A stretch of 26,041 nucleotides of DNA. Source: Nanobdellota archaeon (lineage in GTDB: Archaea; Aenigmatarchaeota; Aenigmatarchaeia; QMZP01). Position 1 is the stretch's first letter. The number at the start of each line of letters is the position of its first letter. This document shows, one piece after another, positions 15,001 through 21,000 of the stretch. The position numbers are program-made. Where the stretch lies: positions 1 to 26,041 of the forward strand of contig JBDRJQ010000033.1 of the NCBI GenBank assembly GCA_043814765.1. The letters are read 5' to 3'.

Positions 15001-18000
15001 AACTGGTATTATGGATATTGTGCTAAAAGTAAGAACAGATAATTTAAGCACCCTCAGCAATTTTGTAGGAAAGTCGCTCAGGGAGACAGAATTTGTTAAA
15101 GATACAGAGACGCATGTTGTTTTAACAGACCATAATGATTAATTATAGAACTGTGATTGGTTAGAAATTAACAAAATCCTTTTCGTACTCGCTTCTTTCA
15201 GTTATTTCACCTGCTATATTGGTTAGCATCATATTCTGGATTTTTTTGAAGTTTTTAGTCTGTCCCAGAACCCAGCAGAGCTTAATGTATGCTGTCTCTG
15301 GTGTCATATCCTCTCCTGGTATTGCACCGGCTTCGTGATAAAGTATTCTCAGATTAGTATAGACATTTGGATTTATTCTGCCGTATATTGTCTGAGGCGC
15401 GATAACTACTGGAATGCCTGCGTCCACAGTTCTCTTTATGGTTTCTATCCAGCTGTTTGCTCCGCTTGTTGGAACATGTCCCAGGCCAGTTCCTTCTATA
15501 ACAAAACCATGATAGCCCTTCTTTTTGTAATAATCTATGAGATCCGGAGTGGATCCTGGATAAGCTTTGATTAGTGCAACTTTTGGATCAAAGTTTGGCT
15601 CAACTGTAACCTTGCCTTCTCCGCGCTTTCTGACATTGCTTGAAACAGTCTCTACCTTTCCGTTAGGCCAAACCTTTGCCAAGGGAAGATCGTTTATTGG
15701 CCTGAATGCGTCTCTTCTGGATGTGTGCATCTTTCTGACTTTTGTACCGCGTATGAAATAACAATAACTGTCACCAGCCTCGGCGTGCATGCATGTGCCA
15801 ACCTCTGCTATGTGAGATAGAGCTGCATGGGCTGCACATATAATATTGAAACCTGCATCTGATGAACCTCTGTCGCTGGATCTCTGCGCGCCCACAAAAA
15901 CAACAGGTTTTGTTATGTTCTTTAGCATAAATGACAGAGCAGCAGTTGTATAGTGCATGGTATCAGTACCGTGCGCAACTATAACACCTTTAGCATCGCT
16001 GTTGAGTTGCTTTGCAACCTCTTTTGCTATTGCTTGCCAGTGTTTGTGGTCCATGTCTTCGCTCATAATATTGAGCGGGTTTGACATGTATTTTATGTTG
16101 ACAAATTCTTTCAGCTCGGGAATATTGTGCAGAACCTCTTCTGGTTTCATAGAAGCAATGACGCCACCAGTTTCATATTCTATGCGGGAAGCAATTGTTC
16201 CGCCAGTTGAAACAAATGATATGGGAGGTTTTTTTGGATCGAATTTTATTTTTAGAAGCTTTTTATCTATCTTTCCCAGTTCATATTTCCTTTCTTCTTT
16301 TACGCCTTCAGGTGTTTTAGTAGATGACTTTTTAATAGACACTCCTTTACCAAATTTTATGCCAACATTGTACCCGTTGTCTAATTTTATTACAACAGAG
16401 TCAGGGTCTCCTACCTCTGTTTTAGGCATTAAGACACCGTCATATTTCTTCTTGCCATTGGACAAAATAATTCGATCGCCTGTTCTGACTTTTTGTCTCT
16501 TTAGAACTGATTCAATCCTTTTTGAGTACATAAATAATAATTGGATTTATTGTTTAATATGTATTATTGAGTTTTTGGATGAAACCTTTCCTAAAGGTTT
16601 CTTATAAATAATATTCCTTTATCTTCTTCTTTCCTAATTTTTTCTTCTCTTTTCTAAATTCTTCTTCCAAATCAGTAGCATATACGTCAAGTGCTAAATC
16701 AGAATCAAAACCATGATATCTTATGCCGAACTCTTTGGTTTGGGTTATATAATAATCATAAACAATTATCAGAGGAAGAAGCGGGTTATCTGGGTCTAAT
16801 CTTCTCAGTTTCCATTTAGCTTTTGTTATCCTGCATGTAGTTGTTTCATGAGACATAAAAATAATTTAGTTTAAGCATTAATATTTTACTTTTTCTTGGT
16901 TTCTGTCCTTTTTGGTTCTTTCTTTGCCTCTTTAGGTTTCTCTTCTTTCTCGGGTTCATTTTTAGGCTTTTCTTCTGTTTTAGGTTCAACCTTTTCTAAA
17001 GGCTTCTCTTCCTTTTTTGCCTTTATTTCCCCTTTCTTTTTTTCTAGTTTTGATGCAAGCTTTTCTACAGGAGTCTCTTTCTTGCCGCCGAGCCTGTCTT
17101 TTAGCTTATCTACACGGCCTTTATTTCCCTTGTCTTCTATGTCTAGTTCATTAGGCAAACGGGCCCAAACAACTCCTTCCTTGTTTTTCCTAACCTTTAT
17201 TTTTATCTTTCCAGGAGGTTTCTCAATTCCCCTGTACCAGAGCTGTTCGTTTAAACTGCGTGATATTTTAACATTATCACTATGCATATGCCTGTTGAGA
17301 AACAATCTAATAGTATTAACTGATTTTTTGACTCTTTTATTCCTTGGAACCTTTATCCAGGCGCTCCTTAGTGGCACTGTATAGATGCGTTCGTCTGCGC
17401 TTGCAGAAGCCTTCTCAGCCTTAACTTGCACGTCCTTTGCCATATAAACACCTATACCTTGAGCTTACTTCGTCTCCAGTTCTTTGTAGACACTCTTATC
17501 CTTCTTGTCCTGGCCCTTTTGAGGCCAAATTTCCTAATATCAGCCCATCTAGGGGCAGACCTAATTTTACCCTTTGCTATTAGCCTTAATTTCTTTCCAA
17601 GTGGCTTGTTTCTGGACATTTTGCTCCTATTTTCTAGTTATATTAAACTCCTTTTTTTCTGATAGCATTATCAAGATTTCTTTCATTTTATCGTCTGTAA
17701 TTCTCTGATCAAATCTTCCTGACTGGAATATCTGCACCATGTATAATTCAATCTGTGCAGCCAGCTGAGGGTTGGCTGATCTAATTCGAGAGAGCCTTTC
17801 ATATGCCTCTTTACTCAGCATAACAGACAATACCTGTTTTTTAATCTGCTCTATTTGCTGAGCTTTAGCCAGCTCATTAGGATCATCTATGTTCATAATA
17901 ATTATTTGATAGTTTTTGCAATTTCATTCATGAAGGCCTTTCCCTTTGCTGTCAATGCACGGCCCTTTTTATCCTTCTTTATTAACTGTTTGGTTTCCAT

Positions 18001-21000
18001 CTGTTGCATCATTCTTCTTATGATGGCTCCAGATGCCTTTCTTTTGTGTTCAGGCTGGTGACCAAGGTTCTTTCTGCCACCATAAAGCTTTCTGAATTTT
18101 GAAACGCCAAGATTCTGCTTTAAGTATAATTTCCTCATAATAGAGGCTTCTCTCAACCACCACCAGTTTTTCTGTTCAGGTGGTCTTTCCTTGTGAACAC
18201 CTGTTTTTACGAATTTTGACCATTCAGGCTGCTCTAAACCCTCTGTTTTTTCTAGGGTTTCAGCTAGCTTTTCTATGAATTCCTGCGAATCTACGTCTTT
18301 AACCGATACCATATTACCATCTTTATTTCCTTGCTTATATTGTTTGATTGGTTTAAGAACGTCTTAATATAACATATGCAGACGTTATTTTACCTTTTGC
18401 AGACGTTATTTTACCTTTTGCTCACCAGCTTTTGCAGAAGCGTTAGCTCTCGGAAAAGCTGGTTATCAATAATGTAGAGCAACTATATTTAAATAATTAT
18501 ATAAGAAGAGGTGTATTTAGGGCTTTTGGATACAACATTTTGGTAAAGGGTTGTTATTTTGCCCTCTTCTTGGCCTGTTTTTCTTTCCTGTAAGGGTATC
18601 TCGTTACCTTGCCGCATTCCAGGCAATTCACTATAACTGCCTGCTGCTTTGAACTTGTTCTTGTTCTGGAGTTTTTCCCAGGAACCAAGAACTTATAGCA
18701 TTTCTTGCAGAACTTTCTCTTTAGTGTTTTAGGAATACTGGTATTGTATCTCATTGATATCTTTCGAGCCATTTCAACATATCTATGAGAACGTTCAGGA
18801 TGCTCTTGAAACTGGTTTTCTGCTTGTTTGAACAGTTTTTCAATCCGTTCTTTTACAATTTTTTTCTGCCATTCTGGTTTAACTGAGGATTTTCTTTGAA
18901 TCATCTTTATATTTTCAATCATTCTCTTTATATGTTGCTTTCAGAATCAGCTTTTGTAACTGTTTCACTATCAGTTTTAGCTTCATTAGGCGAGAACGTT
19001 TCACCTTCTTTGCTTGATTTTTCTGAAACAAATGGTCTTATCTTAAGTGTTACTTTTGTAGTTCTGCCTAGAGGTTCAGCATCAACTATGCCTCTTTCTT
19101 TCAGGTTCTTTACTAGCCTTGAAACCTTTGCCTTGGAGAAATCTGTTTCGCGCACTAACACTTTTTGAATAACTTCACCATCATGTCTTTCTAGTATGTC
19201 CACTATTCTTTTTTCATCCTCACGAAGCACTGATGTTACAACTCTAACAGTGTCAACTTCCGGTTCCTCTTTTGTTTCAGGCTTCTTTGGAGATCTTTTA
19301 ACATATAGAACCATCGCTATCATTACTATTATAACAATCAGCGTTACTGTTACTATGAACAAAATATAGAATTCTTCACCAAATATCGGGATATTGTATT
19401 TAACCAGGAAATTGATTTTATTGTCTACCAGATCCTCTTCACTCCAAAGAAGCGTTATTGTTTTGTTGGCTGTTGCTGTTCTTGGATTTGGGGGAAAGAC
19501 GTCAGTAAGAGCTGCGTTTTCAGGCAATTTCACCTTTATTATAACATCATTAACAGATGCTGGTAAATCATAATTAGCACTGAAGATGAACTGATTGTTC
19601 ACTTTTTTTATTCCGTCCTTTGTATCAAAAAACAGCCTGATGAATCTTTTATCTTCTGCATTATTAAAAAAATCACATATTATATCACTGCCAGCTTCTG
19701 TGTCAATTATGTTGCATTCTGGGTCATCAAAATTTGCAATAACCTTCAGGTTTTCAACATCAAAGCCTAAACTATAATCAAGATGCTTCACTGAATTATC
19801 AAACTCCAATGCCATTTCATTCTCTATAAGTCTGCTGTTCAATATCTTTATGCTTATACCGAAATACTCAAAGTCAGCAGCAGAAGCCGTGGCTGGTAAA
19901 ATGAATAAAACCATGATAAAACCGGTTATTAGCACTATCTGCAACTGTTTCACATCTATAGCTAATTGTTTCATGATTTAAGATTCACACGAAACTTTTT
20001 AAGCCTATACCTATGCGTAGAGTGAAACAATCTAAACTTTTTGTCTGCTAGCTTGAAAAGGTTTATAAAATGTAAAGGTGGTGTGGGTTGTTCACCCACA
20101 CACTAAATTTTAATTATTTAAATTTTGAGATGATTTATGCTGCGTATGAAACAGTTCCTGCCATAACCATCTTAGCTAGGTTCCTTGTGTCAGCGCCTGT
20201 CCAACCAGCTACGACCAATGCTTTCTGTGATGTTCCGAATGCGCTTTCATATTCCTTGATTACACCTGTGCTGTAGTTGTCATTGAAGTTGGCACATGTT
20301 ACATCATCGTCTGCCATCAATGTTGCTACAAGTGTGTTAACGCATGGTCCACCCAGCAAGATTAAGTCTGCGCTTAGTGAACTTGTGCTTATTTCGTTAT
20401 CGAACTTTGCTACAGGTTCTTGTATCTTAACAGCTGCGTTGTATGATCCGCCAGCTGATGATTCAGTGAATGTTGGGTTTGCTCCGAATGCTACTGTTGA
20501 AATTGCCTGTTCATCTGGATAACGAATCCATAGAGCACCTCTGCTGTCGCTGTCGTGCTTTACATATGTTCCGTATGGTATTGTGACATATTCTGTTATG
20601 CTTGCATCACTCTGCTGCGTTGCGGTGTCATAGCTTGTTGTTCCAAAATGTGGAACTTCTATGTCTACATAGTTGTTAGAATCTCTTCCAACCGTGGATA
20701 TTACTACACCCCTGTCGCTTGTTGTGTTGTCCTTCTCTTCTATGAACAGTACAGCAACACCGTCCGGGTTCTCAGACGCGGTGAAGTAACCATCGTCTAT
20801 TTCTATGCTTATGATTTCTGTGAAGTTTAATCCTACTCCTCCACCAGCAGCAACAGCAGTTACGTTGTAGACCAAATTACCTATTGTTATTGCAAAGTGG
20901 TTGTCTTGTGCATCTATTTCATAGTGTAGTGTCTGATTCACTCCGTTTATCCATAATTCAGGTCCAACACCACTTTCCTCTTGGTATGTTATGTTCATGT

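Follow-up and report, generated by a model that had tools for sequence, protein, structure and literature searches.

The window analysed here, the full 26,041 nucleotides of contig JBDRJQ010000033.1 from a Nanobdellota archaeon, raises the question of whether an archaeon can dispense with the ribosome anti-association factor aIF6 and, if so, what is lost alongside it. On the minus strand the genes run in the order rpp21-eS19-PDCD5-eL39-eL31-orf84-gatD, more than 9 kb from both contig ends, as the survey's finding of a mid-contig eS19-PDCD5-eL39-eL31 run followed by an 84-aa gene and gatD had it. Upstream of the cluster lies rpp21, encoding an RNase P subunit (18554..18922; PF04032, E 2.6e-19). 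Then come eS19 (17902..18312; PF01090, E 4.6e-51), a PDCD5-like protein (17627..17896; PF01984, E 3.3e-19) and a 55-aa protein which we take to be eL39 (17452..17619), a label given by size and position, as it has no Pfam match at E ≤ 0.001; its homologues occupy the same place in relatives. The eL31 that follows (16886..17443; PF01198, E 1.7e-11) is 185 aa long and bears a long Lys/Glu tail. This tail was rejected as an aIF6 substitute, since similar tails occur in the aIF6-bearing family f3 (eL31 of 142-207 aa).

Behind eL31, orf84 is just 29 bp away from the stop codon, and this interval (16857..16885), the empty aIF6 slot, holds no remnant of the gene; a tblastn search of seven aIF6 proteins against 76 aIF6-negative loci, this one included, gave a best E of 0.11. 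The orphan orf84 (16602..16856, minus strand) has no Pfam match, no usable feature match in the Atlas and a pLDDT of 0.41, and it was discarded as a fragment or remnant of aIF6, the aIF6 profile giving nothing there at E < 1. A same-genus genome carries an FmdE-family gene at the place of orf84, and there too gatD (15161..16531, minus strand; PF18195, PF00710, PF17763) lies downstream of eL31. An unrelated 84-aa gene after eL31 is thus true of the window but is not the pattern of its family, f1, where the gene after eL31 belongs to the Trm5 family in 19 of 30 loci (the family codes used here differ from those of the survey). Similarly, the description of this position as the usual aIF6 slot holds for f3 (21/21 loci) but not for f2 and f5, where no eL31 occurs within 1.5 kb of aIF6 (four loci and one locus, respectively). 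The neighbours downstream of eL31 in f1 differ from those in f3, and f1 shows just the empty slot.

The gene is missing from the genome as well as from the slot. PF01912 gave no match to the window genome at E ≤ 10, and unfiltered six-frame hmmsearch of this genome with profiles built from the same class gave best E values of 1.4 and 3.3. Across the 91 genomes of the order, PF01912 was found in 0/47 genomes of f1 (probably Aenigmatarchaeota) and 0/1 of f36, versus 4/5 of f2, 21/23 of f3 and 1/1 of f5. Family f4 yielded no real match in 14 genomes (one match of 28 positions, E 0.065), and the survey's claim of a loss common to whole families is upheld. Weak PF01912 matches in genomes G075 and G091 were unrelated frames, and G167 was rejected as a loss, its aIF6 being cut by a contig end.

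All genomes compared are drafts, that of the window being 88% complete, and the search of the genome set relies on a loose first look, so that an aIF6 too divergent to be seen, or dropped in assembly or binning, has to be considered. Such gaps do occur: the scattered negatives of f2 and f3 also lack eL31 and are for that reason read as assembly gaps. In f1, by contrast, 0/47 for aIF6 stands against 43/47 for eL31 and 42/47 for uL14; two single-contig genomes (G304 and G300, scored 72-73% complete) are also negative; and ten f1-type metagenome contigs reaching past eL31, three of them identical to genome loci, carry no aIF6. The most divergent real aIF6, that of f9, is still detected at E ≤ 9e-31, and the in-place deletions described below are gene-sized. 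A missed aIF6 is largely refuted by these results and is extremely improbable, and the loss of the gene in f1 is confirmed. PF01912 is itself a CheckM marker, so that the completeness of aIF6-less families is underestimated.

In a 31-row aIF6 tree, the proteins of f2, f3 and f5 form a single clade (support 98/94). On these sequences aIF6 is shown to have been ancestral in the order and vertically inherited in the sister families, which argues for loss rather than for gain by the sisters. The r-protein tree groups f4 with f3 (support 90/98), the operon tree places f4 among f1, and a single clade of f1, f36 and f4 is not rejected (AU p 0.34). Further losses were found in f4 and f10. In f12 and f20 the gene has been cleanly deleted in place, inside a conserved neighbourhood and away from contig ends. 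The distance from eL31 to eS24 in f12 is 810-877 bp in four aIF6-bearing loci versus 131-161 bp in seven aIF6-negative loci, with one further negative locus at 426 bp, and in two f20 genomes eL31 directly adjoins pfdA-ftsY with no aIF6 between. The proposal that archaea can live without IF6 gains strength from these repeated deletions, one of which falls within a single genus.

The absence is not new to the literature, although the survey had found no report of it. Marker lists in two papers (PMC7414124; PMC10134863) give PF01912 as absent from Undinarchaeota, Parvarchaeales and Jingweiarchaeales, DPANN lineages that, like f1, lack aIF6. According to the supplementary tables for Parvarchaeales (33 Sdo1, 3 TIF6 and 1 NMD3 rows; PMC10134863), these archaea also resemble f1 in keeping SBDS with Nmd3 nearly absent. 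In those lists and tables the absence figures just as a marker accession by which completeness is scored; they give neither synteny nor a loss count and draw no link to Nmd3. While absence of aIF6 is already in print, its loss tracking that of Nmd3 is the new part.

An unrelated protein could have taken over anti-association at the uL14 surface and made aIF6 redundant. RsfS, a bacterial anti-association factor that acts at uL14 like IF6, is the obvious candidate, but it was found in 0/91 genomes over the cut-off, with nine bacterial controls positive. HibA/HPF at first appeared in 4/4 aIF6-negative genomes versus 0/1 aIF6-bearing genomes; a better profile found it in 16/16 genomes of f3 and 4/4 of f2, that is, in families with and without aIF6 alike. 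Neither thus marks out the aIF6-less genomes, no common gene occupies the vacated slot, and many separate losses would require many gains. In favour of replacement stand the reported failure to delete aIF6 in Haloferax volcanii (PMC3828320) and the uL14 C-terminal tail, which shows no change between 36 aIF6-bearing and 65 aIF6-negative sequences (nine doubtful negatives excluded). The unchanged tail says little, because the key contacts of eIF6 N106 go to main-chain atoms of uL14 (PMC8377010), and we regard a replacement factor as quite improbable.

SBDS, which the survey took for the release partner of IF6, is indeed kept: it is intact in the window genome, with three domains and in a psmA-SBDS-rrp4 cluster, and it is present in 80/80 genomes tested, whatever their aIF6 state. 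SBDS-dependent release would lead one to expect SBDS to be lost or dispensable where IF6 is lost, which these counts do not show. The three-domain protein of the eukaryotic SBDS-EFL1-eIF6 release system is conserved in these archaea but, unlike in that system, it stays regardless of aIF6. Its role as release partner is a eukaryotic model carried over; in Sulfolobus, aEF2 suffices for the release of aIF6, which SBDS inhibits (PMC8024482), and aSBDS has been located on idle 70S ribosomes (PMC13324472). Since archaeal release needs aEF2 and not SBDS, retention of SBDS is no paradox.

The protein that follows aIF6 is instead Nmd3, which did not figure in the survey. Both are homologues of the yeast Tif6-Nmd3 late 60S module, although the archaeal Nmd3 seen here, of about 225 aa, matches only positions 16-246 of its 503-aa eukaryotic counterpart, and both genes are deleted in these lineages whereas yeast Tif6 is listed as essential. 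In f12, Nmd3 occurs in 30/32 aIF6-bearing versus 2/26 aIF6-lacking genomes, and within its genus g54 in 3/3 versus 0/3. Four aIF6-negative genomes have lost the gene in place, leaving a glycosyltransferase gene next to aIF1A, and three aIF6-bearing ones carry it at that position. No Nmd3 was found in eight genomes of f10 or, over the cut-off, in 31 genomes of the window's order (a weak match in G160 is an unrelated frame). The coupling is one-way, as aIF6 persists without Nmd3 in f2, f3, f5 and f9. Six genomes (G169, G219, G213, G273, G295 and G299) give an Nmd3 match that is full-length or has its N terminus intact, and no aIF6 match; the four examined at the aIF6 slot (G219, G213, G295 and G299) have a contig end at or before it; conversely, the aIF6-bearing genomes G117, G296, G028 and G177, of Nmd3-bearing families, have no Nmd3 match. 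That aIF6 loss goes with loss or trimming of Nmd3, not of SBDS, points to a two-protein assembly step with which these cells dispense.

Alternatively, aIF6 and Nmd3 could be two of many translation accessories shed, uncoupled, by streamlined host-dependent archaea. Nog1 and eL20 were each found in 0/5 genomes searched, an aIF6-bearing genome included for eL20; none of the five aIF6-negative f12 loci seen has Rio1 at its usual place; and the HPF domain is rarer in aIF6-less f12 genomes (3/14 versus 9/14), so that general streamlining contributes. The four independent f12 pairs on well-supported branches do not reach significance (sign test, p = 0.125), and f2, f3 and f5 retain aIF6 alone. Within g54, however, Nmd3 tracks aIF6, and Rio1, Nog1 and HPF do not, for which reason Nog1 (0/5 and 1/5) was rejected as a third module member; eL24 is retained in 5/5 genomes. 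Genome sizes in f1 (mostly 0.7-1.3 Mb) overlap those of aIF6-bearing f3 (0.7-1.4 Mb). Streamlining by itself also leaves unexplained what happened to the contact surfaces of the two proteins, and we consider an uncoupled loss unlikely.

In yeast, Nmd3 residues 16-39 bind Tif6 (PMC6393466), and the Nmd3-facing residues of Tif6 include P163, T185, G189 and T211 (PMC5536393); this numbering was transferred to archaeal aIF6. The first, N-terminal zinc finger is present in 50/52 Nmd3 genes and missing only in two aIF6-less f20 genomes (G095 and G180), a removal of just the docking finger. In f9, where no Nmd3 was found, aIF6 is without the Nmd3-contact patch: G189 is present in 29/29 aIF6 proteins from Nmd3-bearing genomes versus 0/10 in f9, while the uL14-binding N106 is retained in 10/10. 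The f9 protein is divergent overall, with 11/41 conserved positions lost, five of them clustered at 184-191. Decay of the contact surface after partner loss was thus seen in f20, f9 and one f29 aIF6 but not in f2, f3 and f5, where the patch is largely kept without detectable Nmd3 (G189 12/12, T/S211 12/12, T/S185 10/12). Where parts do change in these archaea after partner loss, they are those that form the contact surfaces of yeast Tif6 and Nmd3. Complex prediction for aIF6 with Nmd3 residues 1-135 (score 0.01) speaks neither for nor against contact.

Taken together, we think it probable that the f1 ancestor deleted aIF6, that this happened again on several occasions within the class, and that the gene was lost as part of an aIF6-Nmd3 module acting late in 50S maturation. 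By analogy with yeast, Nmd3 would dock on 50S-bound aIF6 by its first zinc finger and at the same time hold the uL16/peptidyl-transferase region; intact Nmd3 would therefore require aIF6, and aIF6 without Nmd3 could still block subunit joining via uL14 alone. After loss of either partner, selection on the contact would lapse. In the window's order Nmd3, absent throughout, may have been lost first and aIF6 later in f1, f36 and f4; in f20 aIF6 would have gone first, after which Nmd3 dropped its finger; and in f9 the loss of Nmd3 would have preceded that of the docking patch. The 50S subunit is most likely completed without this checkpoint, with subunits most likely held apart from the 30S side by aIF1/aIF1A and ABCE1, and SBDS may be kept for aIF6-independent work at the peptidyl-transferase centre, on ribosomes that are idle or still maturing. 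More tentatively, and with the odds somewhat against so strict a reading, archaeal aIF6 and Nmd3 may be an obligate docking pair as in yeast, aIF6 being essential mainly as a landing pad for Nmd3, these families building their 50S without the checkpoint and the ancestral role of SBDS being independent of IF6.

A published survey of archaeal biogenesis factors described Tif6 as 'consistently present' and Nmd3 as 'ubiquitously found', without settling what Nmd3 does in archaea (PMC8481954). A factor essential in a model archaeon has yet been deleted by several small-genome archaeal lineages, and its repeated joint loss with Nmd3, with surface decay on both sides in some lineages, amounts to natural genetic evidence that archaeal Nmd3 acts via aIF6. 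If the pair is obligate, aIF6 is predicted to become deletable once Nmd3 is removed or loses its first zinc finger. The joint loss also sets SBDS apart from IF6 release, a point relevant to what the Shwachman-Diamond protein did ancestrally.

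The archaeon whose contig C33 is the window (859 kb in 39 contigs, 88% complete) lacks a recognisable gene for the ribosome anti-association factor aIF6. On the minus strand of the window, the gene order is rpp21, eS19, PDCD5, a gene without a Pfam match that we take to be eL39, eL31 and, beyond a gap of 29 bp, an 84-aa orphan and gatD, bearing out the survey's finding that an unrelated 84-aa gene and gatD follow eL31. The reported absence of aIF6 from behind eL31 and from the genome also held: PF01912 gave zero matches at E<=10, with four archaeal controls above cut-off, and unfiltered six-frame searches with class-specific aIF6 profiles gave best E values of only 1.4 and 3.3. 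Two tandem 147-aa Lrp/AsnC regulators (13832-14275 and 14699-15142, plus strand) converge on gatD. Upstream of rpp21 are, immediately, a DUF7343/MarR helix-turn-helix membrane protein (18928-19974, minus strand) and a 915-aa S-layer protein (PF05124; 20135-22882, minus strand). A membrane ORF (12341-13354, minus strand) with a short Pro-Asp-Asp-Ala tandem repeat close to its end is followed by a 449-aa protein (11023-12372, minus strand) with a presumed vWA-like motif.

A 13-sequence aIF6 profile was searched against all 91 genomes of the order (families f1-f5 and f36). None of the 47 genomes of f1, the family of this archaeon, gave a match, against 43/47 and 42/47 for the control genes eL31 and uL14; the loss is common to whole families, as had been claimed. 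The f36 genome was also negative (0/1), and the single f4 match (E 0.065 over 28 positions) is noise. aIF6 was found in f2 (4/5), f3 (21/23) and f5 (1/1); the three f2/f3 negatives also lack eL31 and are therefore attributed to assembly gaps. The view of eL31-aIF6 as the usual slot is correct for f3 (21/21 loci) but not for f2 and f5, where no eL31 lies within 1.5 kb of aIF6 in any of the five loci. aIF6 follows eL31 in 0/30 f1 loci, the next gene on the same strand being of the Trm5 family in 19 of these. In the metagenome set (45 loci, 19 placed on a tree), it is absent from all ten f1-type contigs extending past eL31, three of which are identical to genome loci. The aIF6 sequences from f2, f3 and f5 group in a single clade (support 98/94), which makes the gene an ancestral feature of the order. 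Concerning whether one loss or two took place in f1 and f4, one tree groups f4 with f3 (90/98), an operon tree gives a different placement, and a single f1/f4 clade was not rejected (AU test, p 0.34). That the loss itself is genuine is almost certain.

Loss of aIF6 is also recurrent, with 191 of 301 genomes of the phylum sample above cut-off. The gene was found in 0/19 genomes of family f10 and in 32/58 of f12 after removal of two sub-threshold matches. The f12 order is eL31-aIF6-eS24, with eS24 on the opposite strand, and deletions are evident from the eL31-eS24 distance: 810-877 bp in four loci with aIF6 versus 131-161 bp in seven without it and 426 bp in one (the ten negative loci fetched also included a locus that broke off early and another without a scored eL31). 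The f12 genus g54 includes genomes of both states, and at least five changes of state are required on a 39-row tree. In two f20 genomes, eL31 directly adjoins pfdA-ftsY. In some f12 loci (L297-L310) the cluster is rearranged to SBDS-rrp4-rrp41-rrp42-eL39-(0 to 4 pilin-like genes)-eL31-aIF6, its rrp and pilin labels being our assumption; the vacated slot of genome G020 holds a 72-aa Cas2/PaaX-like ORF on the opposite strand (L297:5274-5492). In f9, where aIF6 is strongly diverged family-wide (L499-L507, L054), loss is perhaps under way; genomes G161 and G211 have no match and other genes after eL31. The completeness scores of the one-contig genomes G304 (1,051,577 bp) and G300 (742,425 bp) are only 72-73% and may be lowered by the absence of markers, aIF6 among them, from whole lineages.

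The distribution of aIF6 follows that of Nmd3, its docking partner in yeast, which was surveyed twice, with PF04981 and with a class profile, in 80 genomes per search. Nmd3 was above cut-off in 0/31 genomes of the order (retest 0/8), 0/8 of f10, 0/7 of f9 and 0/2 of f29; almost all remaining families are positive. In f12 it occurs in 30/32 genomes with aIF6 versus 2/26 without. nmd3 lies between a glycosyltransferase gene and aIF1A in G023, G055 and G045, and these two genes abut in G083, G020, G051 and G140. In the window's genome no nmd3 precedes aIF1A, and an unfiltered search yielded nothing credible (its best match, at E 0.047, is a short frame rich in Cys). Counting against a specific coupling, the four independent f12 pairs, though none is opposite to it, give a sign-test p of 0.125, HPF and Rio1 are likewise scarcer in f12 genomes lacking aIF6, six genomes have Nmd3 and no aIF6 match (G295, G299, G213, G219, G169 and G273), and four with aIF6 in Nmd3-bearing families have no Nmd3 match. 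In G295, G299 and G213 a contig ends 0-256 bp from eL31, and in G219 the SBDS contig stops before eL39 (20 of ~70 contigs read). The searchable rows of a Parvarchaeales arCOG table hold 33 Sdo1, 32 eL31, 3 TIF6 and 1 NMD3; the KEGG table, consulted under KO numbers we assume to be correct, has 57 occurrences of SDO1 and none of the other two KOs.

Two signs suggest that the coupling may extend to sequence changes at the surfaces that are in contact in yeast. According to two yeast studies, Nmd3 residues 16-39, a finger element, bind Tif6 (PMC6393466), and Tif6 residues P163, T185, G189 and T211 lie toward Nmd3 (PMC5536393); archaeal aIF6 shares this numbering. Two f20 genomes, G095 and G180, lack aIF6 and keep an Nmd3 without the N-terminal CxxC-CxxC finger, which is present in the remaining 50 of 52 genes examined. 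In G095, ~30 bp separate the upstream stop from the start of nmd3, and no frame retains a remnant of the finger. The second zinc site of G180 Nmd3 (L403:739-1398) has also lost its CxxC spacing, and a script detected no remaining C-x(1,2)-C pair. Among 29 aIF6 proteins from genomes with Nmd3, G189 and T/S185 are kept in 29/29 and T/S211 in 27/27; the ten f9 proteins (five from Nmd3-tested genomes) have G189 and T/S185 in 0/10, T/S211 in 0/9 and N106 in 10/10, and the sole f29 protein is similarly eroded at the Nmd3-facing residues. Two observations weigh against coupling: f9 aIF6 is diverged overall (11/41 conserved sites lost, five of these at 184-191), and f2/f3/f5 aIF6 keeps G189 and T/S211 (12/12 each) with Nmd3 not found (10 of 12 genomes tested).

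No replacement for aIF6 was found among the candidates checked: RsfS was above cut-off in 0/91 genomes, HibA/HPF occurs in 63/80 of both aIF6 states (0/8 for HPF in g54), and no change in the uL14 tail was found alongside the loss. The window's genome encodes a full HibA (CBS + HPF; L293:661-1746, contig C3), and HPF matches listed for f4 (8) and f10 are mostly in 105-155-aa frames, the stand-alone form. Between its uL14 and uL24 genes lies a 108-aa gene (C29, 54146-54472), presumably resembling a tRNA-binding OB domain. aIF1 is present in 55/55 loci spanning uL29-uS17 (from families other than f4), the ABCE1 Fe-S domain in 3/5 genomes including this one, and an aEF2-sized GTPase by motif only. 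N106 contacts with uL14 are main-chain (PMC8377010).

SBDS is intact in this genome and present in 80/80 regardless of aIF6 state, confirming its reported retention. Its description as the release partner of aIF6 made this a paradox, which dissolves in view of published work: aIF6 release is driven by aEF2 on its own and inhibited by aSBDS (PMC8024482), which is found on idle 70S (PMC13324472).

By analogy with the yeast contact, archaeal Nmd3 would dock on aIF6 in late 50S maturation; intact Nmd3 would therefore need aIF6, and not vice versa. Lineages without both may use 30S-side factors against premature subunit joining. We consider the whole proposal, loss coupled to Nmd3 through this mechanism, probable. 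In the literature, aIF6 of H. volcanii was not deletable, its depletion impairing growth in only one of six conditions (PMC3828320); Tif6 is "consistently present" and Nmd3 ubiquitous, with the domain missing in 54/858 taxa (PMC8481954); and PF01912 absence is recorded by accession (PMC7414124, PMC10134863), so the bare fact of loss is already known to marker lists. Term searches of PMC8997704 and PMC6514570 gave nothing relevant, and no report of aIF6 loss in Aenigmatarchaeota or of an Nmd3 link was found in a search that left most subscription papers and the large PMC7414124 supplements outside. The coupling of aIF6 to Nmd3, reaching down to their contact surfaces, appears to be new, and it is testable.
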